A stretch of 64,000 nt of DNA, from assembly GCA_027489695.1 (NCBI GenBank), contig JAIXZK010000144.1, positions 553 to 64,552 of the forward strand, given 5' to 3'. Position 1 is the first letter of the stretch. Each line of letters begins with the position of its first letter. The stretch comes from Sphingomonadales bacterium. Its GTDB lineage: Bacteria > Pseudomonadota > Alphaproteobacteria > Sphingomonadales > Sphingomonadaceae. The translations under genes were made by a program, and so were the position numbers. The notes beneath the pieces are model-generated. The model saw only the letters and a program-made list of their open reading frames with translations. It was not told where the DNA came from and ran no database searches. Below are positions 1 through 54,468 of this stretch, one piece after another.

Positions 1-563
1 CAGCCAACACGTTTCAATGTGTCTATGAGCGTCGACCTTGGCACGCCAAAGTTCCGACAAACGCTTGCCTGGCTGGCACCTTGGTCCAGAGCTTTTGTGA
101 TGGCCTCGATCTTCTCGGCCGACAATGCCGGAGGACGCCCACCCCGACGCCCACGCTTCGCTGCTGCCGCGAGGCCGGCGTTGACCCGCTCGCGGATCAG
201 CGATCGTTCGAATTCTGCCAAAGCGCCAAAAACGGAGAACAACAGCTTGCCCTGCGCGGTGGTAGTATCCATTCCTTCGGTGATCGATCGGAACCCGACC
301 CCCCTGCCCTGCAGCTCGCTGATGGTCGCCAGCAAATGACTCAACGATCGACCGAGGCGGTCGAGCTTCCAGACCACGAGCGTGTCACCAGACTTCAGAA
401 ATGCGAGACAGTCCTTGAGCCCCGGCCGATCATCACGCGCGCCCGAGAGCTTGTCGCCATAAATATGTCGCGCATCGACGCCGGCATTTATCAACGCGTC
501 GCGCTGCAAATCCGCTGATTGACGTCCGCTGTCGGTCGAGATCCGTTCATAACCGACAAGCAT
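1..563 (-). CDS. Serine recombinase (resolvase/invertase family); last few C-terminal residues cut by window edge
   Basis: Absent from the ORF track because it runs off the window. Reverse-complement from ATG (561-563) reads MLVGYERISTDSGRQSADLQRDALINAGVD...SGDTLVVWKLDRLGRSLSHLL...FGALAEFERSLIRERV...GRRGGRPPALS...ASVCRNFGVPRSTL. This gives a catalytic-Ser resolvase domain plus a C-terminal HTH. Confidence 0.9.
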   Translation of the reverse strand, partial: MLVGYERISTDSGRQSADLQRDALINAGVDARHIYGDKLSGARDDRPGLKDCLAFLKSGDTLVVWKLDRLGRSLSHLLATISELQGRGVGFRSITEGMDTTTAQGKLLFSVFGALAEFERSLIRERVNAGLAAAAKRGRRGGRPPALSAEKIEAITKALDQGASQASVCRNFGVPRSTLIDTLKRVG

Positions 564-672
564 GTGCGAAATACCTTGTTCGAGGCGTTTCCGCGCATGT
601 AGGCATTCCGACGTGGTTTGTCGAACATTTTGCTCGAAGATCGCTCAGTCCATTCAAACAGTCCCCCGGCCC

Positions 673-698
673 TGTCGGAAAACTACTGTTTTCCGACA
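673..698. promoter_or_regulatory. res-like recombinase binding palindrome
   Basis: TGTCGGAAAAC-TACT-GTTTTCCGACA with perfect 11-bp arms. The outer TGTC/GACA and A-rich inner arms resemble gamma-delta/Tn3 res subsites. It lies 110 bp upstream of the recombinase start. Confidence 0.5.
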
Positions 699-843
699 TG
701 GACACCCTCAGCGGGATTGTGGTCTAGTATCGTTCTGTCAGGGATTCCGTCGGTCTAGGGGCTAAAGCTAGCGCTGGCAGGCTACTCATGGACAAGCGCA
801 CCTCTGCTGTGCCAATTCGGTTCAGCCAACTGGGGGAGCGTGC

Positions 844-1641
844 GTGGCCAAGCTTAGCGTCAAGGAAATCCAATCGCGTGCCCTTCTGATCCTCGAAGGT
901 GCCGTTGGCGGAATCCGCTGGGGCGAACTGTTGAAGAAAATCCACTCGGACGCTCCTGAAACGCCCCCAAACACCATTCACGGCGCCATCCAGACCCTGT
1001 TTGCGAACAGTAAAGATGTAATCAAAGTTGCGCGCGGCACCTATCAGCTAAAAAGATACTATGACGAACAGTCTACAAGTGGAACCGCGGCAGACACAGC
1101 CGCAGAAGAAACCGTAGTTGTCGTCGAAAGTCTCGCTTCGAAGCCGGTCAGCTTCGTTGAGGCTGACTTCTATGCCAGCTTCGCGCAATGGCTCTGCGAC
1201 GTTGAGGAAGCCGTAAATGAAGCGGTCCCGCTGGGCGGAAGCCTGCTGAAGGGCAAATGGGGCACGCCCGATGTGATTGGCGTTCGCAAGCCCCGGGCTG
1301 ACGACATGCTGAAGTTCGAGCCGCAGATTGTGTCGGCCGAGATCAAGATTGATCCGGGCCAACCTGTGGTAGCCTTTGGGCAGGCAGTGGCCTACCGCCT
1401 CTTCTCGCACAAAAGCTATATCGTCGTGCCGCGCACGACGTCCGAAGAGGACCTGAGCCGCTTGAAATCCCTGTGCAGCATCCATGGCGTAGGGCTGGTG
1501 ACATTCACCCTCGACAAGGCCGATCCCGATTATGGCGTCGTTGTCCTGCCAGCGCAGGCAGCGCCGGACATGTTCTATGCCAACCAGATGTTGAAGCGGC
1601 TTCTGGAGGCTGCCCCCAAAATCTTCCACAAACTGTTCTAG
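844..1641 (+). CDS. Hypothetical protein: winged-helix-like N-terminus plus PD-(D/E)xK nuclease-like C-terminal core
   Basis: GTG start 5 nt after GGGGGAG, and 12 nt upstream of mod, so probably operonic. The N-terminus reads KEIQSRALLILEG..IRWGELLKKI. The C-half has E..D..ExK spacing (VEADFY / GTPDVIGV / SAEIKID). I do not recognise a family name. Confidence 0.6.
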   Translation: MAKLSVKEIQSRALLILEGAVGGIRWGELLKKIHSDAPETPPNTIHGAIQTLFANSKDVIKVARGTYQLKRYYDEQSTSGTAADTAAEETVVVVESLASKPVSFVEADFYASFAQWLCDVEEAVNEAVPLGGSLLKGKWGTPDVIGVRKPRADDMLKFEPQIVSAEIKIDPGQPVVAFGQAVAYRLFSHKSYIVVPRTTSEEDLSRLKSLCSIHGVGLVTFTLDKADPDYGVVVLPAQAAPDMFYANQMLKRLLEAAPKIFHKLF

Positions 1642-1653
1642 GTCGGCAAAACA

Positions 1654-3465
1654 GTGGCTGACCAATTTGAACATCTGACCCGCGAGCAGCTTCTGAAGCT
1701 GGTGCGGCAACGTGAGCGCCAGAAAAAGCTCGGCCTCGTGTGGGAGCGCGATGCGATCGAGCGGGACAAGGCGCTGGACGATCGGTTCGTATCTCTCTCC
1801 CTTGTGCCCGATCTCTGCGATGGTGCCGCGCCATGGCCCAACATGGTCGTTGAAGGGGACAACTTCGACGCGTTGCGCTGGCTGCGAATGACTATGGCAG
1901 GCCAGTTTCGCTGCATTCTGATCGACCCGCCCTACAACACGGGCAACAAGGATTGGGTCTACAACGATCACTATGTCGACAAGGAAGATGCCTGGCGGCA
2001 TTCGACCTGGCTCGAGTTCCTTTATCAGCGGCTCATGATCGCACGGGACCTGCTTGCCCGTGACGGCGTGCTTATGGTGACAATCGACGACGACAACAGG
2101 GCTCGCTTGGACATGTTGTTGGAGGAGGCCCTGCCCGGCATGCGCGTTGGTAGCCTTGTTTGGCGGACGCGAGATACAACTGCCGCGAAGGGGAATAATC
2201 TGAGCGACGTGCATGAGCACATTCTGGTTTATGCGAACCCCGGCTTCCGGTTTGCTGGCTCCGAGAAGGGTCGGCATAAATACAAGAATCCGGACAACGA
2301 TCCGCGCGGGGATTGGAATACCGATCCTTTAACGTTGGCATTCAGCTCGACGGACAGAGCTAACCTGTTTTATCCGTTGCACAATCCTGCGACTGACATC
2401 TGGTATCCGTGCGATCACGATCGCGTTTGGGCATTTGCTTCCAAAAATCGTTTGAAGCCCGGCCAGAAAACTAGGTCCGCTCCGATGGAGGACCAGATCG
2501 CGGATGGCTTGATTGTCTGGCCGAAGGATGAGCGGATTGTAGTCTGGAATACATTGGCGGAGGTAGAAGCTGCTGTTGCCGCTGGCGATGTGCCGGTGAC
2601 TCCGAGGGACCAGAAGCCGCTGATCCGACCAAACGATGACCTGGCGCAGTGGGTGGGTCGGCAAGTGGGCTTCGGTCGCCCAGGCATCAAGAAATTCTGG
2701 ACGAACCTTCGAAGCCACGTTTCCCCGCTTAGTAGCTGGATCGCGCGGATCAACGAGGACGCCGATCCTGACCTGGAGCTCATCCGGACAGGTGCCGGTG
2801 GCGAGGGCACCAACGAGATTCAGCGGATCTTTGGATCGAAGGTGTTTCCCAACCCAAAGCCCCTTCAGCTGATCCGCGAGCTGGTTCGCCAAGCGACAGG
2901 CCCTGACGATCTGGTCCTCGATTTCTTCGCGGGCTCGGCCACTACAGCACACGCCGTGATGGAGCTGAATGCCGAAGACGGTGGCAGTCGGCGATTTGTT
3001 ATGGTCTCTTCGACAGAGGCGACTGATGATGATCCTCAGCGCAACGTGTGCCAGGACGTGACCGCAGCGCGCATCCGCCGCCTAAACGGCTTCACTGAAG
3101 GCTCCTATGCCGAGTTGAAAGCACCGTTCGTCTATCTCCGCACCCACGAGATTGCCTTTGAGGACATCGACTATGTGCTGCCGGTCGAAGAAGCGTGGCA
3201 CGCGCTTGAGGCTTCCCATGGACTGCCGCTGACACGATGGGAGCAGGGTGCGCGCTGGGCTGAGCACGCCGGTGACGGGGTTGTGCTGATCCTGGTCGAA
3301 CGGGTGAATGCTGAAGCGTTGGCTGCAATCGAACGCCATGCGGCAGCACGGGCCAATCTCTTCGCTTATGCCTTTGCGCCCGGCCAGCTCCGGACGGCAA
3401 TCGAGGGCCTCGATGTCGAGGTGCATGGGGTGCGCGAAGCCCTAGTACGCAGGTTCGTGCCATGA
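1654..3465 (+). CDS. mod: Type III-like DNA methyltransferase (Mod, beta-class N6A/N4C)
   Basis: DPPYNTG (motif IV) precedes FFAGSATTAHAV (motif I). It has a GTG start, and its stop overlaps the res start (ATGA). Confidence 0.88.
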   Translation: MADQFEHLTREQLLKLVRQRERQKKLGLVWERDAIERDKALDDRFVSLSLVPDLCDGAAPWPNMVVEGDNFDALRWLRMTMAGQFRCILIDPPYNTGNKDWVYNDHYVDKEDAWRHSTWLEFLYQRLMIARDLLARDGVLMVTIDDDNRARLDMLLEEALPGMRVGSLVWRTRDTTAAKGNNLSDVHEHILVYANPGFRFAGSEKGRHKYKNPDNDPRGDWNTDPLTLAFSSTDRANLFYPLHNPATDIWYPCDHDRVWAFASKNRLKPGQKTRSAPMEDQIADGLIVWPKDERIVVWNTLAEVEAAVAAGDVPVTPRDQKPLIRPNDDLAQWVGRQVGFGRPGIKKFWTNLRSHVSPLSSWIARINEDADPDLELIRTGAGGEGTNEIQRIFGSKVFPNPKPLQLIRELVRQATGPDDLVLDFFAGSATTAHAVMELNAEDGGSRRFVMVSSTEATDDDPQRNVCQDVTAARIRRLNGFTEGSYAELKAPFVYLRTHEIAFEDIDYVLPVEEAWHALEASHGLPLTRWEQGARWAEHAGDGVVLILVERVNAEALAAIERHAAARANLFAYAFAPGQLRTAIEGLDVEVHGVREALVRRFVP

Positions 3466-6002
3466 GCGACCGGCACAGTCTGGCGGCCTTTCAGGCCGAA
3501 GCTGTCGAAGCTATGGCAGCGACGGTCCGGCGGGTCGCGCGGGATGTTTCGTTCCGGCCGGCGGAAGCGCGAGCCATTTCGCTCCAATCCGGTACGCTGC
3601 TTCTTCAGGCGCCTACGGGTTCCGGCAAGACGCTGATGCTCGGCCGTGCGTTGGAGAGCGTCACCGGCGGGCTCCCGCAGCCGATGGTGTGGCTCTGGTT
3701 CGCCCCCTTCTCCGGCCTAGTCGCACAGACGCGGGACTCGCTTGCCGCACAGTGCCCCGGATTGCGACTGCGCGACCTGGCCGTGGATCGGGAGGCGGCA
3801 ACGACGCGCGACGGCGATGTCTTCTTGCAAACTTGGGCGTCCGTGGCGACCAAGGTGAAGGAAGCCCGGCGGATTCGGAGTGAGACCGAAAGCGCAAAGT
3901 CGCTCGACACGATGCTGGAGATCCTCCGCGCGGAAGGCTTCCGGGTTGGGGTGGTGATCGATGAGGCGCATATCGCCTTCCGGTCGACCACAGAGGCGAC
4001 GCAATTCTACCTCAACGTTCTGCAGCCCGACGTGACGCTGCTGGCAACGGCGACGCCGAATGATGATCGGTTGCGAGAGTTCGCCAAGTCGGCCGGCCTG
4101 TCTGTCGAGTGGCGTGTCGAGATCGCGAGGCGCGATGTTGTCGCTGCCGGGCTCAACAAGCGCGGGCTGATGCTCGGCATCGTGCGCTTCCCGCCTGAGG
4201 TTGAGAAGTTCCTCGATCTAGAAACGGCAGCTTTGACCGCCGGGTGGACCCAACACACCCGCATCGCCGACCGGCTGAAGGAGCGCGACATCGCTCTTAC
4301 GCCCCTGATGCTGGTGCAGGTTGAAGACCAGGAACAAGGCGGCGCCGATCCGGTCGATCGCGTGAAGGCAAAGCTGATTGAAATTGGCGTGCCGGAGAGC
4401 GCAATCGCAATTCACACCTCCGGTCAGCCGGATGCCAATTTCCATACCCTTGCTTATGACCCATCGCGGCAGGTGCTCGTTTTCAAAATGGCGGTGGCGA
4501 CGGGGTTCGATGCGCCACGCGCTTGGACGCTCGTCTCGGTCCGGCCCAATCGCGGCCGGGACTTCGGCATGCAGGTGGTCGGGCGCATCATGCGCGTGCA
4601 TGCCGCCGTGCGGCCTATCCATGGCCAGGATGCCTTGCTGGACCGGGGATATGTGTTCCTGTCCGATGCCGAAGTGCAGCAGGGCTTGGAAGCAGCTGCG
4701 CGGGAGGTCGATGCGGTGGAGCGGAGCATCCGCGGTGTCGCCGATGTGCTCGATGTGGTCGACTATGCCGTGTTGCCGCCGGCCCCCGCCGGTGTTGCCG
4801 AACCTGGTCCTCACATTCCGCAGGCCCCTAAAACGCCTGAGGATCGGCAGCTCCGTCTGAACCGCCTGATTGAGGCTGGCATCGTGCCCGAGGCTGTCCG
4901 CGCGATGGCCCCGGAGACACAGGATAGGACTATCGTTGCCGGCGAGTGGCGCCGCGTCGTGACAGAAACGCCGCTGTTCGGCGAGGCTTTGCCAAAGGAC
5001 GCCGTTGCCGGGGTGGCTCCGTCGCGCCCGGCTAGCGTTGGGCCAAGTTACAAGGCCTATCCCCTGCGGAAGGACCTAGGTGTTCCTGAGCGGTTGTTTG
5101 CTGAGCGCCCACCGGCGCCAGAGGCATACGACAGCGACGATTTCCTCCGTTCCGTGGCGCGAGGCTTCATCGATCGTGGCGAGCTGGTCCGCCTGGTCGC
5201 GCGGCGGCGGCAGTCGGCCGACCTATCCCTTCGCGATCTGTTCTTGGGCGACAGTGAAAAGCTGCAACTTCAGGTCCGGCTCTCGAACCGCCGGATTGCC
5301 GACGAAGCTCAGGGCGCCTTTGAGTTCAACGATTCCATCGATCCCCGTCTCTTGAAGCGCGCGCTGCTGCACGAGCTTCGGGCAAGCGCGTTGAAAGATG
5401 GCATCGAGTTCGAGGAAGCGGACCTGCGGCGGGCAGTCGATCTCGGTGCGCTCAGCAACCCCGATGCACTGGTGACCGCCGTGCGGGAGACAATGGCCCG
5501 CTTCCGCAAGGTCGTGCCTGCGGAGCCGATTCCTGATCCGCTAAGAGAAAGAGATGGGCTGCCGGAAGGAAGGCTTGCCGCGCACGGCGTTTTCACCAGC
5601 GACATGAACGGTCCGGAAGCCGCCTTCGCCGAGATGGTCGATCAGGACGATAGTGGTACGATCCTATGGTGGCTTCGGACACCGCACAACACGCCCTGGG
5701 CGGGGAAGCTCATCCTGCCCAACGGTCGCTCGTTCTTCCCGGACTTTGCTGTCGGGGTTCGCGGCCGATCAACGCCGCAGCAGGTGGCGTTGGTGGAGAT
5801 CAAGGATGACGGGAGCACTGGTCGATTGAACGCCGATGAGAACAATCTGAAGGCACAGGTGCAGCACATGGAGTATCGCGCGCCCTTCTGGGCCGCTAAG
5901 GGTCCGGGCGGCGAATTCGAGCGGCTTGAATGGAACCCGTCGCTTCGCCGCATTGTGGCGACCGATCGGTTTCAGGTGCAAACGATGGTTTTGGTCGGAT
6001 AA
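3462..6002 (+). CDS. res: Type III-like restriction subunit (Res): SF2 helicase plus C-terminal nuclease
   Basis: APTGSGKT (Walker A), VIDEAH (DEAH box) and ATATPN. The C-terminus has a PD-ExK-like FFPDFAV...VALVEIKDD. It is translationally coupled to mod. Confidence 0.85.
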   Translation: MSDRHSLAAFQAEAVEAMAATVRRVARDVSFRPAEARAISLQSGTLLLQAPTGSGKTLMLGRALESVTGGLPQPMVWLWFAPFSGLVAQTRDSLAAQCPGLRLRDLAVDREAATTRDGDVFLQTWASVATKVKEARRIRSETESAKSLDTMLEILRAEGFRVGVVIDEAHIAFRSTTEATQFYLNVLQPDVTLLATATPNDDRLREFAKSAGLSVEWRVEIARRDVVAAGLNKRGLMLGIVRFPPEVEKFLDLETAALTAGWTQHTRIADRLKERDIALTPLMLVQVEDQEQGGADPVDRVKAKLIEIGVPESAIAIHTSGQPDANFHTLAYDPSRQVLVFKMAVATGFDAPRAWTLVSVRPNRGRDFGMQVVGRIMRVHAAVRPIHGQDALLDRGYVFLSDAEVQQGLEAAAREVDAVERSIRGVADVLDVVDYAVLPPAPAGVAEPGPHIPQAPKTPEDRQLRLNRLIEAGIVPEAVRAMAPETQDRTIVAGEWRRVVTETPLFGEALPKDAVAGVAPSRPASVGPSYKAYPLRKDLGVPERLFAERPPAPEAYDSDDFLRSVARGFIDRGELVRLVARRRQSADLSLRDLFLGDSEKLQLQVRLSNRRIADEAQGAFEFNDSIDPRLLKRALLHELRASALKDGIEFEEADLRRAVDLGALSNPDALVTAVRETMARFRKVVPAEPIPDPLRERDGLPEGRLAAHGVFTSDMNGPEAAFAEMVDQDDSGTILWWLRTPHNTPWAGKLILPNGRSFFPDFAVGVRGRSTPQQVALVEIKDDGSTGRLNADENNLKAQVQHMEYRAPFWAAKGPGGEFERLEWNPSLRRIVATDRFQVQTMVLVG

Positions 6003-6054
6003 TGAATCTGATCGACTTGATTGAGCCCATAGGGCCTCAGGCAAGGCGCAGCTG

Positions 6055-6699
6055 ATGCCTGCACCTATGCACCCAAAGATATATCACATTGTTCACGTCG
6101 ACCGCCTGCCTGCGATCCTCGAAGAAGGCGCCCTTCTGTGTGATGCAACGATGATTGCCAGACCGGGCGCAGGAACCACGATTGGAATGGGCTCGATCAA
6201 AACGCGGCGCTTAACCTTGCCTGTCACGTGCCACCCTGGACTCAACGTCGGTGACTGCGTTCCGTTCTACTTTTGTTCTCGCTCTGTCATGCTTTATCTG
6301 CTACGCATGGGCAATCACGCCGAGCTGACTTACCGGGGTGGACAAGGACCCATCGTGCATCTGGAAGCCGATCTCCGCGAAGTGGTCGAATGGGCTAACG
6401 CCGGTGGTCGCCGTTGGGCATTTTCGCTGTCTAACGCGGGCGCCTACTACACACAATTTCGCTCGGATTTGGCTCAGTTGAATGAGATAAACTGGGTAGC
6501 CGTCGCCGCCACCGATTTTCGCCCTTCTGATATTAAAGAGGGCAAGCAGGCCGAATTTCTGGTGCACGAACGCTTTCCTTGGGGCCTTGTGCGCCGTATC
6601 GGCGTTCAGACGCCTGCAATGGCGCAGCGGGTATCAGATGCAATCCGTGGCGCCGCGCATCGACCGCCAGTGGAGATTCTGCCGGCATGGTACTATTGA
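6055..6699 (+). CDS. darT: DarT-like ssDNA ADP-ribosyltransferase toxin (DUF4433)
   Basis: KIYHIVHVDRLPAILEEGALLCD at the N-terminus and GKQAEFLVHERFPW near the C-terminus match my memory of DarT. A macrodomain gene follows 15 nt later. Confidence 0.82.
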   Translation: MPAPMHPKIYHIVHVDRLPAILEEGALLCDATMIARPGAGTTIGMGSIKTRRLTLPVTCHPGLNVGDCVPFYFCSRSVMLYLLRMGNHAELTYRGGQGPIVHLEADLREVVEWANAGGRRWAFSLSNAGAYYTQFRSDLAQLNEINWVAVAATDFRPSDIKEGKQAEFLVHERFPWGLVRRIGVQTPAMAQRVSDAIRGAAHRPPVEILPAWYY

Positions 6700-6713
6700 G
6701 GGAGGGAGCCGAG

Positions 6714-7742
6714 ATGATTGAATCACGCGAAGGCGACATCCTCAACGCTGATGTTGAAGCTCTCGTCAACACCGTCAACTGCGTAGGCATTATGGGCCGG
6801 GGTGTAGCGTTGCAGTTCAAGAACGCATTCCCGGATAACTTCGCCGCGTACGCTGCCGCATGCGATCGCGGCGAGGTCGTGCCCGGCCGCATGTTCGTGT
6901 ACGCCACTCGCCAGCTGACCAATCCGCGGTTCATCGTCAACTTTCCGACTAAGCGTCACTGGAAGGGCAAGAGCCGTATCGAGGATATCGAGGCCGGCTT
7001 AGTTGCGTTGAAGGCGGAGATTCAAAGGCGGGGAATTCAGTCGATCGCCATTCCTCCCCTTGGCTCTGGCCTCGGCGGCCTGAATTGGAGCGATGTGCGC
7101 CCTCGGATCGTGGCGGCTCTGCGCGACATCGAGGGGTTGACCGTCGAGCTGTTCGAGCCGCGCGGCGCTCCCGATGCGAGCGTTATGGCCCGCACGCGCG
7201 AAGTTCCTAAGATGACGGTCGGCCGCGCGGCGCTGGTCACTTTGATGCAGCGCTACCTGGGCGGCCTCATGGACCCGTTCGTGACGCTGCTCGAAGTCCA
7301 CAAGCTCATGTACTTCCTTCAGGAAGCTGGCGAGCCGCTGCGTCTCAAGTATCAGAAGGCTACTTACGGTCCTTACGCCGAAAACCTCCGCCATGTTCTC
7401 CATGCGGTCGAGGGGCACCTGATTACCGGCTATGCCGATGGGGGTGATGCGCCAGGTAAGGAGCTGGAGCTTGTGCCAGGAGCTGTGGATGACGCCGAGA
7501 CTTTCCTGGCCTCGTCCACCGACGCGAGAGCCCGCTTGGACCGCGTGGCGAAGCTGGTAGAAGGTTTCGAGACGCCCTTTGGGCTTGAACTGCTTGCGAC
7601 TGTTCATTGGGTTGCCCAACGCGAAGGCGCCGGCGATGGCTTGGTTGCCCGAGTACATGCTTGGGGGGAACGTAAGCGCCAGTTCTCTTCGGGACAAATC
7701 ATGCTCGCGCACAACACCCTGCTGCAGCAGGGCTGGCTTTAG
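6714..7742 (+). CDS. darG: DarG-like macrodomain antitoxin (ADP-ribosyl glycohydrolase)
   Basis: Start set at ATG 6714 (GAGGGAGGGAG upstream) instead of ORF-track 6579. Macrodomain signature GDILNADVEALVNTVNCVGIMGRGVALQFK. The C-terminal half (KLMYFLQ..YGPY) resembles DUF4065/Panacea-type domains. Confidence 0.82.
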   Translation: MIESREGDILNADVEALVNTVNCVGIMGRGVALQFKNAFPDNFAAYAAACDRGEVVPGRMFVYATRQLTNPRFIVNFPTKRHWKGKSRIEDIEAGLVALKAEIQRRGIQSIAIPPLGSGLGGLNWSDVRPRIVAALRDIEGLTVELFEPRGAPDASVMARTREVPKMTVGRAALVTLMQRYLGGLMDPFVTLLEVHKLMYFLQEAGEPLRLKYQKATYGPYAENLRHVLHAVEGHLITGYADGGDAPGKELELVPGAVDDAETFLASSTDARARLDRVAKLVEGFETPFGLELLATVHWVAQREGAGDGLVARVHAWGERKRQFSSGQIMLAHNTLLQQGWL

Positions 7743-7799
7743 CAGCCACTGTAGCAGTCGTCCCCGTTGCGGGTCACGACTGCCATGCACGTATCTACC

Positions 7800-8150
7800 C
7801 TACTGATCCTTGGACCAGTAGATTCTGCCCCGTCGAAGCCAGAAATGAGATTTGCAGTCCTTTTTCCTCCAAATTGACGGGAATAGGGTTGCAGTTCCGT
7901 CCTCATGCATTGTGACCTGCCAGCAGGGTCGCTCGTCTGGCAGCAAATTCATGTGCAATACCTTTCCGCATTTACACGGGCAGAGCATTGCAGCCTGTTC
8001 TTGAAATCCATCCTCCTCGACAATGTAGAGGGTCCGCCGACGCATTTTAGTCGGAAGGCGGTCGTGCACAATTTCGGTGCGGTGTGGTGGATCAAACCAG
8101 CCAACAACAGCCTTGGCCCACGACCTAATGATCTTTCCAATGGCTGTCAT
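7800..8150 (-). CDS. DUF6527-like small Cys-cluster (Zn-ribbon-like) protein, last gene of the Ubl operon
   Basis: 116 aa with CPCKCG...CW...DCKSHFW. Its start overlaps the E1 stop by 4 nt. Confidence 0.72.
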   Translation of the reverse strand: MTAIGKIIRSWAKAVVGWFDPPHRTEIVHDRLPTKMRRRTLYIVEEDGFQEQAAMLCPCKCGKVLHMNLLPDERPCWQVTMHEDGTATLFPSIWRKKDCKSHFWLRRGRIYWSKDQ

Positions 8151-9945: not shown

Positions 9946-9948
9946 CGC

Positions 9949-10290: not shown

Positions 10291-10351
10291 TTCTCGGCTC
10301 CTTGCCCAGGCCCGGACCGCCCGGGTGATGAGAAGCCATATCGCATAGCGT

Positions 10352-44073: not shown

Positions 44074-44101
44074 ATTTAACATAAGATATATTATCAAGAT
44101 T
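44074..44101. other. dif-like XerC/XerD recombination site (11-6-11)
   Basis: The reverse complement AATCTTGATAA-TATATC-TTATGTTAAAT compares with E. coli dif GGTGCGCATAA-TGTATA-TTATGTTAAAT. The XerD arm matches 11/11. The XerC arm shares the inner ATAA. Confidence 0.6.
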
Positions 44102-44565: not shown

Positions 44566-44592
44566 TAGCCTTTCTTCTGAATTGGGACATCA

Positions 44593-45321: not shown

Positions 45322-45330
45322 GGTCCCGTC

Positions 45331-46380: not shown

Positions 46381-48134
46381 GCCGCATCCTCGTCATGGCG
46401 CACCGTGACAACGCGGAACATGCCGGCGTGCATGTGGAGCATCATGTGGCAATGAAACGCCCAGTCGCCGAGCGCATCGGCAGTGAGATCGAACGACACC
46501 TTGCCGCCCGGCAGGACGTTGACCGTGTGCTTGACCGGCCGGTTGCCCTTCTCACCCATCACCACCTCGAAGAAGTGGCCATGGAGATGGATCGGGTGGG
46601 GCATCATCGTGTCATTGATCAGATTGACCCGAACGCGCTCGTTATGGCGGAAAGCCAGAGGCTCGGCACCTTCGCTGAACTTCACGCCATCGAACGACCA
46701 CATGTAGCGTTCCATGTTGGCGGTCAGATGGATGTCGATCTCGCGCGACGGGTCGCGCTTGTCGGGATTGGCGTCGAGCGAGCGAAGCTGGCTGTAAGTC
46801 AGCACGCGGTGTGGTTCGTTTTCGAGACCGGTCGGGCGCTCGGCGGTGCGGTCCATCGGCATCGAGGATAGCATAGCCACCCCCGGCCCCATCTTGACCT
46901 GAGGCGCCACCGACGGGTCGAGCATCTTCATCGACCCCATGTCGTGGCTCATGCCCGGCATCGCGCCGTGATCCATGCCTGGCATGTTGCTATGGTCCAT
47001 CCCGGCCATGGCACCGCCGCTCATGTCCATGTCGCCCATGCCCATGTCCTTCATGGTGAGCAACGGGCGCTTTCGCAGCGGCGGCACATAGGCAACCATT
47101 CCCATCCGCGGCGCCAGGGTGGCGCGCACCAGTCCTGACCGGTCGATGCCTTCGGCGATGAAGCCATAGGCCTTGTCCTCGGTTGGGTGGACGACGACGT
47201 CATAGGTTTCGGCGACGCCGATCTGGAACTCGTCGGTCTCCACCGGCTGCACATTGTTGCCGTCTGCCGCGACGACGGTCATCGCCAAGCCCGGGATACG
47301 CACGTTAAAGTTGGTCATCGCCGACGCGTTGATGATGCGCAGCCGGACCTTTTCACCCGGCGCGAACAGCCCTGTCCAGTTCTCCGCCGGCCCATGGCCA
47401 TTGACGAGATAGGTGTAAATCGCGCCGGTCGCATCGGAAATGTCGGTCGGGTCCATCCGCATCGCGCCCCACATCCGGCGGTCGGCGGCCGACTGGTCCT
47501 TGCCGGCAATCAGTCCGACGAGCGTCTGCTTCTGGAAATTGAAGTTGCCGCCGTTCTGCTTCAGCCGCGTGTATATCTTGTGCGGGTGCATGAAGCTCCA
47601 GTCGCTGAGCACCAGCACATGCTCGCGGTCCGATTGCACCCGGTCGGCCCCCGTCGGATCGATTACGATCGAACCGAAATGCCCCATCGCTTCCTGCAGG
47701 CCCGAATGGCTGTGATACCAATAGGTGCCGGCCTGGCGGATCGGGAATTCATAAACGAAGGTTTCGCCAGGCTTGATGCCGGGAAAGCTGATCCCCGGAA
47801 CGCCGTCATATTGAAACGGCAGCAACAGCCCGTGCCAATGGATCGACGTGTCCTCGGACAGCGTGTTGGTCACCGACAGGCGGACGTTCTGGCCTTCCTT
47901 CAGCCTGATCAGCGGCCCGGGCACGGTGCCGTTGATGGCAATGGCATGGCCCGACCGGCCGCCGACACTGTGCATTGCGTGGCCGATGCTGAGCTTGATG
48001 TCTTCGCCGGACAAAACATCGCTGCCGCTCGCAAGGCCGCCAGTGCCACTGCGCGCCCAACCCGGCACAGCCATCGCACCTGTGACTAACGAGGCGGCCC
48101 GCAGAAAGCCGCGGCGAGAGGTCGGTAGGATCAT
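46377..48134 (-). CDS. copA: Multicopper oxidase CopA
   Basis: Tat signal SRRGFLR (ATG 48134), IHWHG, HCHMMLHMHAGM, and a Met-rich MGMGDMDMSGGAMAGMDHSNMPGMDHGAMPGM. Confidence 0.9.
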   Translation of the reverse strand: MILPTSRRGFLRAASLVTGAMAVPGWARSGTGGLASGSDVLSGEDIKLSIGHAMHSVGGRSGHAIAINGTVPGPLIRLKEGQNVRLSVTNTLSEDTSIHWHGLLLPFQYDGVPGISFPGIKPGETFVYEFPIRQAGTYWYHSHSGLQEAMGHFGSIVIDPTGADRVQSDREHVLVLSDWSFMHPHKIYTRLKQNGGNFNFQKQTLVGLIAGKDQSAADRRMWGAMRMDPTDISDATGAIYTYLVNGHGPAENWTGLFAPGEKVRLRIINASAMTNFNVRIPGLAMTVVAADGNNVQPVETDEFQIGVAETYDVVVHPTEDKAYGFIAEGIDRSGLVRATLAPRMGMVAYVPPLRKRPLLTMKDMGMGDMDMSGGAMAGMDHSNMPGMDHGAMPGMSHDMGSMKMLDPSVAPQVKMGPGVAMLSSMPMDRTAERPTGLENEPHRVLTYSQLRSLDANPDKRDPSREIDIHLTANMERYMWSFDGVKFSEGAEPLAFRHNERVRVNLINDTMMPHPIHLHGHFFEVVMGEKGNRPVKHTVNVLPGGKVSFDLTADALGDWAFHCHMMLHMHAGMFRVVTVRHDEDAA

Positions 48135-48239
48135 ATCTGTCCCTGGAAATTCAGCAAAGCACAGCAAGGCTCGCATTGAGATACGCACGGTTTTGAATCG
48201 CCCCTCAAGGTAAGCCTGCGGCATTATCGCTTTAGAGGT

Positions 48240-48809
48240 CTAACCGCTCAGCGCCTTGCGGGCGCGATAGATCCGGACTTCGACAGCCTTCTCGCTAATC
48301 CCGAGTACCGAGGCAGCTTCCGCCTGCGAAAGACCGTCCACCGCGGTCAGGATGAGAGGCTCTTTGAGGTTCGCCGGAAGCGACGCAATCGCCTTGGTCA
48401 CGCGCGCCAGCGCGCGGGCATCATCGATCGCTGCCTCGCCCGTAACCGTCGTGTCGACAATCTCGCTTGCCGCGTCCAACGGTAGCGCAAACCGAAACAG
48501 GCGCCGGACGGCTCGCCGACGCCCCCAATCGCGGCACTTGTTCAGGGCGATGCGGCTGATCCAATAGCGAAACGGCCGGCTGCCGTCATAGCGTCCGATC
48601 GATGCAAAGGCCGCGACAAACGTCTCTTGCACAACATCGAGGGCCTCATCAGCGTCGCCAACATGGCTGCGAACAAGACGGAACACCGGCTCGCGGTAGC
48701 GCTGCATCAACTCGCCATACGCCGCCTGGCGACCGGTCAGCGCCAGCGCGGCGAGCTCGGCATCGGTGCAGCCGGTGAGCGGCATCGTCGGAGCACTCTG
48801 GCCAGTCAC
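48240..48809 (-). CDS. ECF (sigma-70 family) sigma factor
   Basis: Region 2 VVQETFVAAF and region 4 LSQAEAASVLGISEKAVEVRIYRARKAL. Confidence 0.85.
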   Translation of the reverse strand: MTGQSAPTMPLTGCTDAELAALALTGRQAAYGELMQRYREPVFRLVRSHVGDADEALDVVQETFVAAFASIGRYDGSRPFRYWISRIALNKCRDWGRRRAVRRLFRFALPLDAASEIVDTTVTGEAAIDDARALARVTKAIASLPANLKEPLILTAVDGLSQAEAASVLGISEKAVEVRIYRARKALSG

Positions 48810-49246
48810 TCCGTCGGGGCTGTCAGCGCCTTGACCGCCGCCTCGTCGAACTTTCGCGCCTGATCGGGCCGTAAGACACCGCGCAATCGAAACACATGCT
48901 GGAGCGTCTCCTTCTGGAGCTCGCCCATCACCTCGTGGGAACGGTCAACCGCTGTCTGCACCCCCGGGCCATAGCCATGTTCCGCCGTGATCGCTTCAGC
49001 CAGGCGCGCGTTGTCGGATCGCATTTGCTGCTCGAGGGCGCGCTTCCTGACCGCAAACTGCTGTTCGAGCCCCTCTATCTGCGCCCGTTGCGCGGCATCG
49101 AGTTCGAGCTTGTCGTGGAGAATGGCGTGAAGCTCGGTTTCAGGTGGGGAAAGCCGCGTAACCAGCGCGCGGCCGACAAACACGCCGCCGAGCGCTGCGA
49201 CGAACGCTACCAGCGCGACAATCGCGAACCGCCGGAAATTGTTCAT
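48806..49246 (-). CDS. Periplasmic heavy-metal sensor (Spy/CpxP-like, LTxxQ repeats)
   Basis: TM anchor, then LELDAAQRAQI and LRPDQARKF. Confidence 0.62.
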   Translation of the reverse strand: MNNFRRFAIVALVAFVAALGGVFVGRALVTRLSPPETELHAILHDKLELDAAQRAQIEGLEQQFAVRKRALEQQMRSDNARLAEAITAEHGYGPGVQTAVDRSHEVMGELQKETLQHVFRLRGVLRPDQARKFDEAAVKALTAPTE

Positions 49247-49521
49247 CCGATATTCGCCAGCAGTGTCGAGGGCGCAAGGTTGGCCCCGGCTGCAAATGGC
49301 GAGGTCTGCGCTGCCTCGGCCGAACCGCCGGGCAGTATCGCCGCGCCAATACCAATTCCCATTGCGAGAACCGCGGCAAGACTGAGCGCCGGTCCGGTGG
49401 TCAATGCCGATGCGCTGCGCTCAGCAACGATTTGCATCATCACTTCGCCTTCAAGCGACGCCAACCTTGTTGGCACCGGCAGGGTGCGTAGCTGCTGCAA
49501 CGCCCGGTCAAGGTCGTCCAT
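49243..49521 (-). CDS. Putative anti-sigma factor / membrane protein
   Basis: First gene of the ECF operon, with a single TM. ATG 49521 chosen. Confidence 0.42.
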   Translation of the reverse strand: MDDLDRALQQLRTLPVPTRLASLEGEVMMQIVAERSASALTTGPALSLAAVLAMGIGIGAAILPGGSAEAAQTSPFAAGANLAPSTLLANIG

Positions 49522-49643
49522 AAAAGGTTCCTTCTCAAATCCAGTAGACACTACGCACGCCCCGCGCTCACCCCTCAACAAGATTCCTTGAGGGGCACGG
49601 TGACGGCCTGCGTATATCTCCCCAGTCCATCAAGGAGCCATCA

Positions 49644-50033
49644 ATGACCTTCAACTTTCGCGCCGTTCTCGTTGCTGCCATGATTGCTGCGCTCGGCACC
49701 GGCACCGCTGCACTTGCACACACCAAGCTCGTATCATCGACTCCGGCCGCCAATGCCACCGTCGACAAGCCCGGCAAGATCGTCCTGGTTTTCAACGAAA
49801 AGCTGATGGCCAAGTTTGCCGGCGCCGAACTGACAATGACCGGCATGCCCGGCATGGCCGACCATCAGCCGATGAAGATGACCGGCTTCACAACGGCGCT
49901 GGGTGCCGATGGCAAGACGCTGACGCTGCTGATGAAGCGCGCGCTTCCCAGCGGCAGCTATGAGCTCAAATGGTTTGCCGCTGGCGCCGATGCCCATCGC
50001 ATGGAAGGCAGCTTTCCGTTCACCGTGAAATAG
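49644..50033 (+). CDS. copC: CopC periplasmic copper-binding protein
   Basis: The signal peptide ends ALA-H, so His is the mature N-terminus. Met-rich loop TMTGMPGMADHQPMKM. Confidence 0.85.
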   Translation: MTFNFRAVLVAAMIAALGTGTAALAHTKLVSSTPAANATVDKPGKIVLVFNEKLMAKFAGAELTMTGMPGMADHQPMKMTGFTTALGADGKTLTLLMKRALPSGSYELKWFAAGADAHRMEGSFPFTVK

Positions 50034-50034
50034 C

Positions 50035-50937
50035 ATGCTCGCGATCGCCATCAGGTTTGCGCTCTATGCCAATCTGATGGTGCTGTTCGGGTGGCCGCTG
50101 TTTGCGTTGTACGGGAGCCGTGGCAAAGCCAGCGGACCATCACCAAGCGAGTTGCTTTCGCTGACGCTGGTCGCGGCGTTGCTATCGGTTGCTGGCATGC
50201 TTGCAATGACCGCAGCGATTTCCGGGGTCGCGATCATGGAGGTCGATCGCCCCTCGATCGCGGCGATGGTGTTCGAAACTCCGATGGGATTGGCGTGGCA
50301 GGTTCGAATGCTGGCGCTTGCAGCCATCGCAGCGCTGGCTCTCGCGCGCAATCCTGTCGCCCGGGTTGCAATGGTGATCTTTGCCGGCGCGGCATTGGGG
50401 TCGCTGGCCTGGACCGGCCACGGTGCGGCCGGGGAGGCGACGACGGGCTGGGTTCAGCTTGTCGCTGACATTGTCCACCTGCTTGCCGCAGGTGCCTGGG
50501 TAGGCGCGCTGGTAGCATTGGGCTTGATGGTAGCGCGCGATGCGTCGCGCCTGACATCGGCTGACTTCATCTCGATGCACCATGCACTCGATGGCTTCTC
50601 GAAAGCCGGGACCGTTTTCGTCGCGCTGCTGATCATAACCGGCTCCATCAACACATGGATTCTTGTCGGTCCAGCGGGGATCGGCCTGGTTGGCAGCGAT
50701 CCGTACGTCCAGTTGCTGGCGATCAAGCTGGCGCTGTTCGTGGCCATGCTCTGGCTGGCGGCAATGAACCGCTTCCGCCTCACCCCGGCGCTGTTGCGCG
50801 ATCTGGACGCTGGCGCTGTGCCGTCAGGAGCCCTCCGTGCGCTGCACCGGTCGATCGCTATCGAAGCCGGATTTGCTGCTTCGGTACTGGCAATCGTTGC
50901 CTGGCTAGGAACGCTGGTGCCGCCAGCATCGTTATAG
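50035..50937 (+). CDS. copD: CopD inner-membrane copper resistance protein
   Basis: Polytopic, immediately after copC. Confidence 0.85.
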   Translation: MLAIAIRFALYANLMVLFGWPLFALYGSRGKASGPSPSELLSLTLVAALLSVAGMLAMTAAISGVAIMEVDRPSIAAMVFETPMGLAWQVRMLALAAIAALALARNPVARVAMVIFAGAALGSLAWTGHGAAGEATTGWVQLVADIVHLLAAGAWVGALVALGLMVARDASRLTSADFISMHHALDGFSKAGTVFVALLIITGSINTWILVGPAGIGLVGSDPYVQLLAIKLALFVAMLWLAAMNRFRLTPALLRDLDAGAVPSGALRALHRSIAIEAGFAASVLAIVAWLGTLVPPASL

Positions 50938-51022
50938 GCTGTGTGCCTGACCTGTTTTGTTCTGAGGGCTGATCGTGCGCTTTGCGTATCACCCACTAGC
51001 AGACACACGGAAAGGTGTTCCA

Positions 51023-51517
51023 ATGCACAAATATATTACGCTCGCAGCATTTTTGCTCGTCGCAGCCCCAATCGCCGCGCAAACGTCGCCGCCGCCTGTT
51101 GATCATAGCAAGATGCAGGGCATGAACCACGATGCGATGGCCAAACCGGGTGCATCGACGCCCGCCATGGACCACAGCAAGATGCAGACGATGGACCATG
51201 GCAAGATGGAAGGCATGGACCATTCCAAGATGGGCGGAATGGGCGAGATGATGAAGAATACGTCTGCCAACCCCTACGCCGAGGTCGGCATGGCGATGCA
51301 CCACAAGATGATGGTCGTCGGCGCCGACGCGTCGGAAACCTGGATCCGCCAGATGATCGAGCATCATCGCGGTGCGATTGCGATGTCGAAGATCGCCGTC
51401 ACCCAAGCTGCCGACAAGGAAGTTAGCTCGATGGCGCAGAAGGTCGTCACGATGCAGCAGAAGGAAGTCGCAAGCCTCCAGTCGTGGCTGAAGCGAAACG
51501 GCAAGAAGGCGCAGTAA
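51023..51517 (+). CDS. DUF305 protein with a His/Met-rich N-terminal repeat
   Basis: Signal peptide, four repeats of (M)DHSKM, then WIRQMIEHHRGAI. Confidence 0.75.
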   Translation: MHKYITLAAFLLVAAPIAAQTSPPPVDHSKMQGMNHDAMAKPGASTPAMDHSKMQTMDHGKMEGMDHSKMGGMGEMMKNTSANPYAEVGMAMHHKMMVVGADASETWIRQMIEHHRGAIAMSKIAVTQAADKEVSSMAQKVVTMQQKEVASLQSWLKRNGKKAQ

Positions 51518-51618
51518 TGGCCATGGCACATCGGGCTCGTGCACACGGGTCCGATGCCGCCAAAGCTGACTGCTTGAGGGCAGCGACACTTGGAGGAACG
51601 GCGAAAGTAACGGGCGGC

Positions 51619-52014
51619 TTACCCGGCGCTCCCGGCGAGTTCCTCGATGATCGGACAGTCCGGACGATTGTCGCCGCTGCACGTCGCAACAAGGTGCTCG
51701 AGCGAACGCCGCATCGTATGCAACGCCCTTTCGCGCTCCCGCAGGTCGGCGATCCTGGCCGTCGCCAAAGCTTTGACGTCGGCGCTCGCCCGCGTCTGGT
51801 CGCTCCAGAGCGCCAGAAGCTCGCCAATCTCGTCGATCGGAAAGCCAAGGTCACGGGCCCTGGCGATGAACCGCAATCGATGCACGTCATTGGTCGAATA
51901 ATCCCGGTACTGCGAATCCCTTCGCAGCGCCTTCGGTGTCAGCCCGATCTTTTCATAATGGCGCACCATCCGCGGGCTGAGACCTGCCGCGGCCGCTGCC
52001 TCACCGATGTTCAT
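51619..52014 (-). CDS. cueR: MerR-family Cu(I)-responsive regulator (CueR/HmrR)
   Basis: MNIGEAAAAAGLSPRMVRHYEKIGL and a C-terminal CSGDNRPDC. Confidence 0.85.
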   Translation of the reverse strand: MNIGEAAAAAGLSPRMVRHYEKIGLTPKALRRDSQYRDYSTNDVHRLRFIARARDLGFPIDEIGELLALWSDQTRASADVKALATARIADLRERERALHTMRRSLEHLVATCSGDNRPDCPIIEELAGSAG

Positions 52015-52024
52015 GAGATACCTC

Positions 52025-52055
52025 TTGACCTTGACACGATGTCAACCCCGACATT
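52025..52055 (+). promoter_or_regulatory. MerR-type promoter with 19-bp spacer and internal dyad
   Basis: TTGACC, then 19 nt, then GACATT. The spacer contains TTGACA-cga-TGTCAA (52031-52045). Confidence 0.5.
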
Positions 52056-52089
52056 GCGCCGCGACGCTTGATTTACAAGGACGCAGGCC

Positions 52090-54468
52090 ATGGCCGATCC
52101 CCAGCACACGCACTCCAGCGAATTCGATAGGAAGGCCCATGCTTGCTGCGGCGGCGGCAAGGGAAGTGCTCCCGGCGCAACCGTGAAGGACCCGGTCTGC
52201 GGCATGTCCATCGATCCGCATACCGCTGCGCATCGCGCCGACCACGACGGCCATCCCTATTATTTCTGCTCCGCCGGCTGCCGGACGAAGTTCATCGCCG
52301 ACCCGGCGAAATATCTGACGCCCGCCGAATTGCAGTCGCACGAGCCAGTGCCCGAGGGCACGATCTACACCTGCCCGATGCACCCGGAGATCCGCCAGGT
52401 CGGACCTGGCGCCTGCCCCCTCTGCGGGATGGCACTCGAGCCGGCAGTGATGACCGCAGACACGCCGCCAAATCCTGAGCTTGCCGATTTCACGCGCCGC
52501 TTCTGGATCGGTCTGGCGCTGACGATCCCGGTGTTCATCCTCGAGATGGGCGGCCATGTTTTCGACATCGGCCATCTCATCGCGCCGCAGATTTCGAACT
52601 GGATCCAGTTGGTCCTCGCGACACCCGTGGTCCTGTGGGCGGGGTGGCCATTCTTCGAACGCGGGTGGCAATCCATCGTCAACCGCAGCCTCAACATGTT
52701 CACACTGGTTGCCATGGGAACGGGCGTCGCCTGGGCCTATAGTGTCGTGGCGACCGTTGCGCCCGACGTGTTCCCGCCAGCGTTCCGCCGTATGGACGGC
52801 GCGGTCGCGGTCTATTTCGAGGCCGCAGCGATCATCGTGGTTCTGGTCCTTCTCGGGCAGTTGCTGGAGCTGCGGGCCCGCGAGGCGACCGGCGGTGCCA
52901 TTCGCGCCCTCCTCGATCTAGCGCCCAAGACCGCCCGGCGATTGAAGCCCGACAGCAGCGATGAAGAGGTATCGCTCGGTCTGGTCGTCGCCGGCGACGT
53001 TTTGCGCGTTCGCCCCGGAGAAGCCGTGCCTGTCGACGGCACGGTCACTGACGGACGTTCGACGATCGATGAATCGATGGTCACTGGCGAATCCATGCCT
53101 GTAACCAAAGCGACCGGCGACACCGTCATCGCCGGCACCATCAACCAGACCGGCGCGATCGCCATGCGTGCCGACAAGGTCGGCAGCGACACCATGCTGG
53201 CGCGGATCGTCCAGATGGTCGCCGATGCCCAGCGCAGCCGTGCCCCCATCCAGCGACTTGCTGATCAGGTGGCCGGGTGGTTCGTGCCGGCCGTCATTGT
53301 TGTCGCCGTGCTGGCCTTCATCGTCTGGGCAAGCTTTGGCCCTGAACCGCGTTTCACCTTCGGCTTCGTTGCCGCCGTCACTGTTCTGATCATTGCTTGT
53401 CCTTGTGCGCTCGGGCTCGCCACGCCGATGTCGATCATGGTCGGTGTTGGCCGGGGTGCGGCAGCCGGCGTTCTGGTCAAGAATGCCGAGTCGCTCGAGC
53501 GCATGGAGAAGGTCGATACGCTGCTGGTCGACAAAACCGGCACGCTGACCGAAGGCAAACCCAAGGTCGTCGCCATCGAGCCCTTCAGCGGCATCACCGA
53601 AGCGGAGCTGCTGCGCTTTGCTGCCGCCGTTGAGCGTCCGAGCCAGCACCCGCTCGCCGCAGCCATCGTCTCCGAAGCCGCCGCCCGGTCGATCGCTGTG
53701 GAAACCGCGACCGAGTTCGATGCCCCCACCGGCAAGGGTGTTATCGGCTTAGTCGATGGCCGACGTGTCGCCATTGGCAATCCTGGCTATTTGTCCGAGC
53801 TCGGCGTCGATACCGCCGCGCTGGCCGAAGCCGCAGACCGTCATCGCCGCGAAGGCGCGACCGCCATCCTTGTCGCCGTCGACGGCAAGGCCGCCGGCGT
53901 GATCGCCATCGCCGATCCGGTGAAACAGTCCACGCCCAGTGCCCTGGCAGCGCTAAAAGCCGAAGGCATCCGAGTTATCATGGTCACCGGCGATAATCGT
54001 GTCACCGCCGAAGCCGTGGCGCGGCGCCTTGGGCTCGATGAGGTCGAGGCCGACGTCCTCCCCGATGCCAAGAGCGCGGTGGTTGCCAGGCTCAAGGCCG
54101 AAGGCCGCGTCGTCGCCATGGCCGGCGATGGCGTCAACGACGCCCCTGCCCTCGCCGCCGCCGATGTCGGAATTGCCATGGGCACCGGCACCGATGTCGC
54201 GATCGAAAGCGCTGGCGTGACCCTGGTCAAGGGGGACCTCAACGGCATCGTTCGAGCGCGCCGCCTCAGCCACGCAACCATGCGCAACATCCGCCAGAAT
54301 CTATTCCTTGCCTTCGTCTATAACGCCATCGGCGTTCCGGTCGCTGCCGGCGTCCTCTATCCGTCGTTCGGCCTGTTGCTCTCGCCGGCGATCGCTGCCG
54401 CGGCCATGGCGCTGTCGTCGATATCGGTCGTCGGCAACGCGCTGCGCCTCAGAAGCGCCGAGCTGTGA
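52090..54468 (+). CDS. Copper-translocating P1B-type ATPase
   Basis: N-terminal YHS/TRASH-like CGMSID...YYFCSAGC, then YTCPMHPE...CPLCGM, CPC, DKTGTLT and [10 protein letters not shown]. Confidence 0.95.

Follow-up and report, generated by a model that had tools for sequence, protein, structure and literature searches.

Probable FtsK-orienting polar sequences run from the replication origin to a predicted dif site on a Sphingomonadales conjugative plasmid

The octamer GGGCAGGG is the FtsK-orienting polar sequence (KOPS) word bound by FtsK of Escherichia coli, Vibrio cholerae and Pseudomonas aeruginosa, and the gamma domain of the protein is conserved across FtsK orthologues (PMC3384302). On alpha-proteobacterial chromosomes the same word is over-represented and biased towards the leading strand, and it is polar on plasmids too (Young et al, 2006; PMC1557990); in Rhizobium leguminosarum 3841 it occurs once per 7-25 kb, with its function left open and dif unmapped (PMC1557990). 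FtsK-dependent XerCD sites, accompanied by a KOPS bias without enrichment, have been described on enterobacterial megaplasmids such as R27 (Fournes et al, 10.1101/2024.04.05.588136; NAR 2025), and in the Enterobacteriaceae every replicon above 250 kb hosts an active XerCD site (10.1101/2024.04.05.588136). Enterobacterial plasmids of 30-100 kb are mostly without Xer sites, as summarised in a passage of an Azospirillum preprint (10.64898/2026.09.14.751567). A 2026 survey reported that KOPS polarity inverts at dif on large extrachromosomal replicons (PMC13342612). In Azospirillum, GGGCAGGG was picked as the KOPS word and is present on secondary replicons, and the switch is sometimes clearer at the origin than at the terminus (10.64898/2026.09.14.751567); the smallest replicons are often devoid of dif and KOPS (PMC13342612, 10.64898/2026.09.14.751567). 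Here we describe the distribution of this octamer in a stretch of 64,000 nucleotides from a Sphingomonadales bacterium (contig JAIXZK010000144.1, positions 553 to 64,552; hereafter the window, meaning this whole stretch), which holds a parAB-repA origin region and a predicted dif site.

We consider it probable, as one joint reading, that the replicon is a conjugative plasmid of low copy number, 75.4 kb or more in size, in a Sphingomonadales-type host, and that GGGCAGGG and the GGGNAGGG family are KOPS running from its origin to a single dif. The copies read 5' to 3' away from parAB-repA-oriV on both arms, towards dif (Table 1). As in E. coli, the 8-mer consensus is GGGNAGGG with the same degenerate position, the leading-strand polarity runs 5' to 3' from ori to dif, and it would invert at a 28-bp dif with an identical XerD arm, TTATGTTAAAT. 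Unlike in E. coli, the XerC arm is of the Sphingomonadales type (..TGATAA, not ..GCATAA), and the replicon is a conjugative plasmid of ~75 kb instead of a chromosome, with a role for FtsK that is predicted from sequence. R. leguminosarum 3841 is likewise alpha-proteobacterial and displays the same over-represented word, the strand bias of which predicts the plasmid origin; in contrast, a dif is identified here and the density is several-fold higher, at about one copy per kb of backbone. With the R27-type megaplasmids the window shares a chromosome-like Xer site on a plasmid at the point where KOPS would converge, but its replicon is only ~75 kb, its KOPS are strongly enriched and a serine resolvase is encoded too. 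The replicons of the 2026 survey and of Azospirillum have the architecture predicted here, alpha-proteobacterial hosts included; those are large and lineage-associated, whereas the present one is a self-transmissible plasmid with mobile cargo. A further parallel is chromosome 2 of V. cholerae, which derives from a plasmid, is handled by the FtsK/XerCD of its host, carries KOPS of the GGGCAGGG type and has a dif variant of its own, dif2 (PMC2533119); for the window plasmid such handling is predicted. That chromosome is essential and measures about 1 Mb (PMC2533119), whereas no essential genes were seen on the window plasmid.

The window was extended by 9.9 kb from contig JAIXTD010000216.1 (75,378 bp, GCA_027484345.1), the window being the reverse complement of most of this contig. 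Scans of the window plus extension cover 73.9 kb, and positions past 64,000 are given as window-equivalents. Exact copies of GGGCAGGG number 28 in the window, against 3.72 +/- 1.85 in dinucleotide shuffles (maximum 10) and 2.7-3.6 expected from Markov models of order 1-4. Under the fourth-order model the word ranks first among all 8-mers by observed/expected ratio (8.0x), and it also ranks first for a switch from the minus to the plus strand, the optimum lying after 19843. The family GGGNAGGG totals 36 copies versus 8.9 expected, with C at the degenerate fourth position in 28, G in six, A in one and T in one. Left of the origin, 14/15 copies of GGGCAGGG lie on the minus strand, while all 12 copies between the origin and 42.3 kb lie on the plus strand; the gap between them, 19,851-22,804, holds repA and five 15-nt iterons. 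The word statistics, the strand counts and the position of the switch thus bear out the initial annotation, which had described by eye a strand-polarised word flipping at an iteron origin. Its list of copies was right within a one-base offset (9-mer versus 8-mer starts), although it had missed 12869 on the minus strand and 24955 on the plus strand. Of the two exceptions it named, the copy at 9534 does break the polarity. The copy at 54144 does not, provided that the replicon is circular: together with the single further GGGCAGGG contributed by the extension (minus strand, 67501), it then points back at dif. With a circle assumed, the ori-to-dif polarity holds for 28/29 copies of GGGCAGGG in the window plus extension (binomial p about 6e-8) and for 34/37 copies of GGGNAGGG; the copy noted earlier as running against the polarity at 28553 is confirmed, and is a GGGAAGGG.

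This pattern is not explained by the genes that carry the word. Genes called to either side of the switch lie on the plus strand, as had been noted before; the left-hand copies of GGGCAGGG are antisense to them, and the right-hand copies are in their sense strand. Left-arm copies occupy codon frames 1 and 2 as well as intergenic positions, right-arm copies occupy all three frames and intergenic positions, and eight copies in the window are intergenic. A coding-strand artefact was therefore rejected, on the grounds of plus-strand genes on both sides and of a word found in every codon frame (both arms pooled) and between genes. A repeat element or repetitive extragenic palindrome was likewise rejected, given that the flanks of the KOPS copies are not conserved beyond a weak G at +9. 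The comparison with GC skew that the initial annotation had proposed is of little use, the profile of the window being weak and not clean, its one feature a shallow minimum of the cumulative curve near 19-25 kb; base skew is accordingly not the driver of the pattern. Along the backbone (12.8-42.3 kb) there are 32 copies of GGGNAGGG, one per 0.9 kb, whereas the defence and metal islands are at background. Six overlapping doublets (GGGCAGGGCAGGGG, GGGGAGGGCAGGG, GGGCAGGGGCAGGG) are all correctly oriented, five of them on the left arm, and may constitute stronger FtsK loading sites. In published FtsK assays, three KOPS copies were needed for an effect (PMC3384302).

The second component of the architecture is the dif site. 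Two 11-bp arms, for XerC and XerD, flank a 6-bp spacer in this 28-bp site, which reaches a position weight of 41 bits and is the only one above 12 bits in 73.9 kb; no match was obtained in 100 shuffles. Published chromosomal dif sites of the order are GTCTGATAA TATATA TTATGTTAAAT in Zymomonas mobilis, ATTTGATAA TATATA TTATGTTAAAT in Sphingopyxis alaskensis, GTCCGATAA TATATA TTATGTTAAAT in Sphingomonas wittichii and GAATGATAA TATATA TTATGTAAAAT in Erythrobacter litoralis, with a related site in Novosphingobium aromaticivorans (Kono et al, 2011; PMC3025954 and its supplement). In the plasmid site the XerC arm is of the clade-specific ..TGATAA form, the XerD arm is an exact match and a single spacer base differs. 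The dif-like site suspected earlier at ~44.07 kb is therefore well supported as a predicted dif of the Sphingomonadales chromosome type, and KOPS converge on the same type elsewhere, as described below. It is intergenic, between the SRAP gene and a DUF411 gene, and present in a single copy 21.9 kb from oriV, almost exactly opposite which it would lie once the metal island of ~30 kb is discounted. The 12 plus-strand copies of the right arm end 1.8 kb ahead of it. The claim that the word stops at dif holds in so far as its density drops to background beyond the site; the drop itself occurs because that DNA is metal-resistance cargo. We considered whether this island could be an Xer-integrated element between two dif sites, an idea with which the absence of a second site above 12 bits in 74 kb does not agree.

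A RepA scan of 185,579 species genomes gave 80 loci, mostly sphingomonad and taken with flanks of up to 10 kb either way, the RepA proteins of which are 55-79% identical to that of the window; sphingomonad plasmids and second chromosomes are among them. Copies of GGGCAGGG left of the repA stop are 280 on the minus and 70 on the plus strand, and those to its right are 199 on the plus and 11 on the minus strand. The conserved RepA peptide HAGGAGE, coded ..GGG GCA GGG GAG.. in 40/80 loci, accounts for 40 of the 70 left-hand plus-strand copies, and recurrent codons in ParA and ParB carry some copies as well. As conserved peptides there encode the word, parA-parB-repA was left out of the family count, leaving 1.14 Mb of flanks over the 80 loci. 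In these arms all four variants are polar: the C variant GGGCAGGG occurs 292 times on the leading and 19 times on the lagging strand, the G variant GGGGAGGG 218 and 15 times, the A variant GGGAAGGG 83 and 13 times, and the T variant GGGTAGGG 32 and two times. This is exactly the degenerate consensus of KOPS, and the KOPS-like behaviour anticipated from the window is in this way extended to the 80 RepA replicons. An inheritance of KOPS positions is true in part within ParA, ParB and RepA, but the polarity persists in the 1.14 Mb of flanks. The two closest relatives have only parAB-repA-ori in common with the window (~74% nucleotide identity); their KOPS stand at different positions with the same polarity, which indicates turnover under selection and not inheritance. 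With 27 copies per 21 kb (1.27 per kb), the near-origin density of the window is the highest of the 80, the family median being 15 (0.7 per kb). A density inverse to replicon size is not supported, since near-origin values of 0.4-1.1 per kb are found in contigs of 0.2-3.7 Mb. In a 51.8-kb relative with many Tn3 elements and resolvases, KOPS are confined to the vicinity of the origin and dif is absent.

The family arms also bear on the possibility that the word is a passive by-product of replication mutational bias and of amelioration to the oligonucleotide usage of the host, and serves no purpose on the plasmid. The remaining 55 arrangements of the letters in GGGCAGGG are already 69% leading, and the high density in the old backbone with background density in recent cargo is what amelioration predicts. 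However, GC skew amounts to just 0.017 in the arms and does not follow a clean profile in the window, whereas GGGCAGGG is 94% leading and the most frequent of the 56 permutations, none of the others being equally frequent (311 observed versus 84 expected). The word is moreover 4-8x over-represented under Markov models and arises by turnover at non-homologous positions in relatives. The window repA itself uses the synonymous GGA for the last glycine of HAGGAGE (21450-21470, residues about 231-237) and so avoids the wrong-way copy upstream of the iterons that half of the family has. A purely passive origin consequently seems unlikely to us.

The origin on which the switch is centred has the features of an iteron-type theta origin, namely a PF10134 initiator adjoining helically spaced direct repeats and an AT-rich stretch. 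Downstream of the iterons lies the window's variant of a family element, TGATTCAA(T). In the RepA family this element is strongly one-stranded (74:4), and ~62 of its 79 occurrences are found no more than 500 bp past the repA stop codon, which marks it as a conserved origin element and perhaps a DnaA-box-like site.

Convergence on this type of dif can also be followed in other replicons. A metagenome scan with the pattern TGATAATATATNTTATGTWAAAT yielded 69 contigs kept at a GC content of at least 55%, in which GGGNAGGG is oriented 75:0 towards dif on the XerC side and 55:3 on the XerD side (130/133). One of these contigs carries MetRS, TatD, MazG, HflX and NtrY and, given these housekeeping genes, is chromosomal. 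It has the spacer TATATC too, so that this spacer was rejected as a hallmark of plasmid dif and is, unlike that of dif2, not specific to the replicon. Beside chromosomal-type dif the commonest variant is GGGAAGGG (A 63, C 27, G 26, T 14), whereas GGGCAGGG dominates on the RepA-family replicons, above all in the window; the difference in preference may come from the mix of taxa or from AT-richer terminus regions. A blast search of PLSDB with the 30-nt dif consensus found intergenic matches in dozens of sphingomonad plasmids (100-400 kb) and in chromids of ~1 Mb. In four sphingomonad plasmids of 102-127 kb, GGGNAGGG is distributed 16:1 and 2:15 across dif (31/34 convergent). In the complete plasmid pNP2-R2 (97.7 kb) KOPS switch strand once near repA and a second time between 19.8 and 22.8 kb, and the sole dif-like site, at 21,536, lies within this 3-kb zone of KOPS convergence opposite repA.

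We also note three observations on the surroundings of these sites. The four plasmids of 102-127 kb, with dif at 20001 or 12512, have conserved arms and the spacers TATATC, TATTTC, CAAAGA and TAATTG, most chromosomes having TATATA. Plasmid pCFD-1-2 carries a cop / P-type ATPase copper-resistance cluster about 10 kb from dif, and the window likewise has such a cluster beside dif. On a 3-kb metagenomic contig, an SRAP gene 75% identical to that of the window (562-1197; window region 43005-44101) stands beside a dif with the TATATC spacer (2963-2985), and from this pairing the SRAP-dif neighbourhood recurs in a related element.

Two further explanations can be weighed with these data. The initial annotation had offered a Chi-like signal as the alternative, that is, a hotspot for a host nuclease of the AddAB/RecBCD type, oriented so as to protect DNA at broken forks, with degradation back towards the origin. 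Such a signal would share the leading-strand polarity and the over-representation of KOPS, and the high density next to the origin would be in keeping with a role in shielding the core of the replicon; to our knowledge, the Chi sequence of alpha-proteobacterial AddAB has not been described. Against this, all four variants of GGGNAGGG are polar, a degeneracy that defines KOPS and is unexpected for Chi, and the skew of 94-97% is well above the ~75% of E. coli Chi. Furthermore, the polarity inverts exactly at dif sites in contigs and plasmids, for which Chi would give no reason, and the word is identical to the experimentally defined KOPS (PMC3384302). We regard a Chi-like role as very improbable.

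A signal specific to the plasmid could alternatively be envisaged, such as sites for the 726-aa ParB_N protein, the coupling protein or the primase, or G-quadruplex tracts in transfer or lagging-strand priming. Coupling proteins are FtsK-like ATPases, the density peak adjoins parAB/oriV, and doublets such as GGGCAGGGCAGGGG provide three G-runs. A transfer-strand signal would, however, keep to one strand all along, without a flip at oriV. Convergence of these words on dif is also seen in the chromosomal contig with housekeeping genes and in plasmids with unrelated replicons and MOBF/MPF_F transfer, and the KOPS copies are not surrounded by an extended conserved flank. On these grounds we give this explanation hardly any credence.

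We therefore return to the assignment of the word to KOPS, for which a mechanism can be proposed by analogy with E. coli, V. cholerae and P. aeruginosa. At cell division, a septal FtsK hexamer of the host would load on the plasmid DNA in an orientation set by the KOPS, pump the DNA as far as XerCD bound at dif, and then activate XerD, whereby plasmid dimers would be resolved and the plasmid cleared from the closing septum. About one KOPS per kb between 12.8 and 42.3 kb, together with the six doublets, would allow FtsK to be oriented dependably even where, as on a small replicon, distances are short. It is presumed in this proposal that sphingomonad FtsK reads GGGNAGGG and that the plasmid dif depends on FtsK. 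The KOPS-poor stretches (defence, 0.8-12 kb; metal resistance, 44-74 kb) would be recent cargo in which adaptation to KOPS is still to come, and the position almost opposite oriV that dif would take without the metal island suggests a recent insertion of cargo beside dif.

Several points weigh against this proposal. The link between FtsK and the motif is predicted here from the DNA pattern, and an approximate query for the E. coli FtsK gamma domain gave no match by tblastn in 2.5 Mb of loci sequence, none of these loci yielding an ftsK gene. We infer the left-arm route to dif from an assumed circle, the 73.9 kb analysed being ~1.5 kb short of the contig. On a circle of 75.4 kb, the left-arm copies at 12.8-19.8 kb would moreover send FtsK the long way to dif. 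The far side of dif has two minus-strand copies of GGGCAGGG across ~30-31 kb of cargo, which is background density; as the ~31 kb beyond dif hold only these two, the evidence for convergence in the window replicon comes mainly from a single arm. Since G-rich words in general are already ~69% leading, some of the skew is not peculiar to this word. Finally, dimer resolution may not depend on dif, because the plasmid encodes a serine resolvase.

Table 1. Features of the window discussed in the text (positions in nucleotides of the window)
Feature	Position	Strand	Remarks
Serine recombinase, resolvase family, 206 aa	<1-563	-	PF00239; starts at 563, 3' end beyond window start; N-terminus MLVGYERISTDSG
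KOPS-poor defence island	844-10524		lower GC; helix-turn-helix regulator nearby
Type III restriction-modification (methylase and Res helicase)	1654-6002		Pfam
DarT/DarG	6055-7742		Pfam
Multi_ubiq / Prok-E2_E / JAB-ThiF(E1) ubiquitin-like defence operon	8147-10524	-	Pfam
ArdC (anti-restriction), 726-aa ParB_N-domain protein, YAcAr-domain protein	13869-18474 (~13.9-18.5 kb)	+	
parA	18619-19791	+	PF10609 ParA
parB	19781-20773	+	PF18090 SoPB_HTH
repA, RPA-family initiator	20770-21999	+	PF10134
oriV	22010-22390	+	iterons, element, AT-rich stretch to about 22390
Inverted iteron, one copy	22010-22025		
Five direct 15-nt iterons CGAYACWYCRGGAAC	22173, 22194, 22216, 22239, 22261		spacing 21-23 bp
GGATTCAT element, then inverted GAATC	22285-22302		window's variant of TGATTCAA(T)
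S26 peptidase, lytic transglycosylase, ParDE	~22.5-25.8 kb		
MobA/MobL relaxase, coupling protein, VirB11, VirB2-B10/Trb genes, primase	26028-42347	+	conjugation backbone
M48 peptidase, SRAP	~42.4-43.7 kb		
dif	44074-44101	-	XerC arm to XerD arm: AATCTTGATAA TATATC TTATGTTAAAT
KOPS-poor metal-resistance cargo	44125-64000, on to at least 73.9 kb		cop genes, P-type ATPase, resistance-nodulation-division (RND)/czc pumps
Left-arm KOPS, 14 GGGCAGGG	302, 2129, 12822, 12869, 12875, 14336, 14341, 14889, 16357, 17257, 17262, 17471, 17657, 19843	-	span 302-19850
Left-arm GGGGAGGG or GGGTAGGG	12817, 13203, 19838	-	
Right-arm KOPS, 12 GGGCAGGG	22805, 23564, 23901, 24955, 26011, 27488, 29146, 32219, 38378, 39017, 39627, 42269	+	span 22805-42276
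Right-arm GGGGAGGG	23896, 24687, 29732	+	
GGGAAGGG	28553		opposes right-arm polarity
KOPS doublets	within 12817-12882, 14336-14348, 17257-17269, 19838-19850, 23896-23908		
Lone wrong-polarity GGGCAGGG	9534-9541	+	inside Multi_ubiq/E2/E1-JAB operon of accessory (defence) island
Isolated GGGCAGGG	54144-54151	-	inside P-type ATPase gene of cargo

The gene map in Table 1 is based on gene calls with Pfam matches. It does not agree with the chromid-like replicon suggested initially, since it holds a relaxase, a coupling protein, a full VirB-type type IV secretion system (T4SS), and defence and metal cargo. The definition of a chromid (core genes, uniform host-like composition) does not fit a gene set of par, rep, T4SS, relaxase, defence island and metal cargo. 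No core, housekeeping or essential gene was seen among the genes called on the window and extension, and the GC content of the window varies between 53% and 70%. In PLSDB no close relative of the whole plasmid was found, the matches being repA (~75%) and short T4SS segments. The complete serine recombinase gene is found on a 99.97% identical Logan contig from another run (SRR29398965); it could be the multimer resolvase of the plasmid itself or part of the adjoining defence island. The ArdC, ParB_N and YAcAr genes all read towards oriV, head-on to the leftward fork if replication is bidirectional.

The initial annotation had judged an ori/KOPS/dif architecture unusual for a plasmid. This cannot be maintained, since polar GGGCAGGG has been reported on alpha-proteobacterial plasmids since 2006 (PMC1557990), KOPS and dif are documented on secondary replicons (10.1101/2024.04.05.588136, PMC13342612, 10.64898/2026.09.14.751567), and the same dif type occurs in the dozens of sphingomonad plasmids in PLSDB. 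The architecture is thus already known, and the window is a further case, notable for its small size and its density. What is specific here is a self-transmissible plasmid of ~75 kb, the top near-origin density among the 80 loci, and the flip at repA throughout the Sphingomonadales RPA replicon family. On a practical level, KOPS polarity is sufficient to place both the origin and the site of dimer resolution in sphingomonad replicons yet to be characterised, and KOPS-rich DNA flags a long-resident backbone where KOPS-free DNA flags recent cargo.

It can be tentatively hypothesised, as a possibility that we hold to be less than even, that FtsK, KOPS and XerCD-dif form part of the routine upkeep of self-transmissible plasmids in the Sphingomonadales, down to a backbone of ~45 kb, with selection maintaining KOPS at about 1 per kb, often in overlapping doublets and several-fold above the density of chromosomes, which would let FtsK find its orientation within a few kb. 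Were this true, the size rule of the Enterobacteriaceae, in which mid-size plasmids have their own resolvases and are without Xer sites and KOPS enrichment, would be broken, and conjugative plasmids would have to be re-tuned to the FtsK and dif of each host clade. If the dif is FtsK-dependent, plasmids coupled to the host division machinery would extend below the size range known from the Enterobacteriaceae. Such a dependence would also suggest a constraint on host range, because the KOPS and dif of the plasmid must match the FtsK and XerCD of the recipient.

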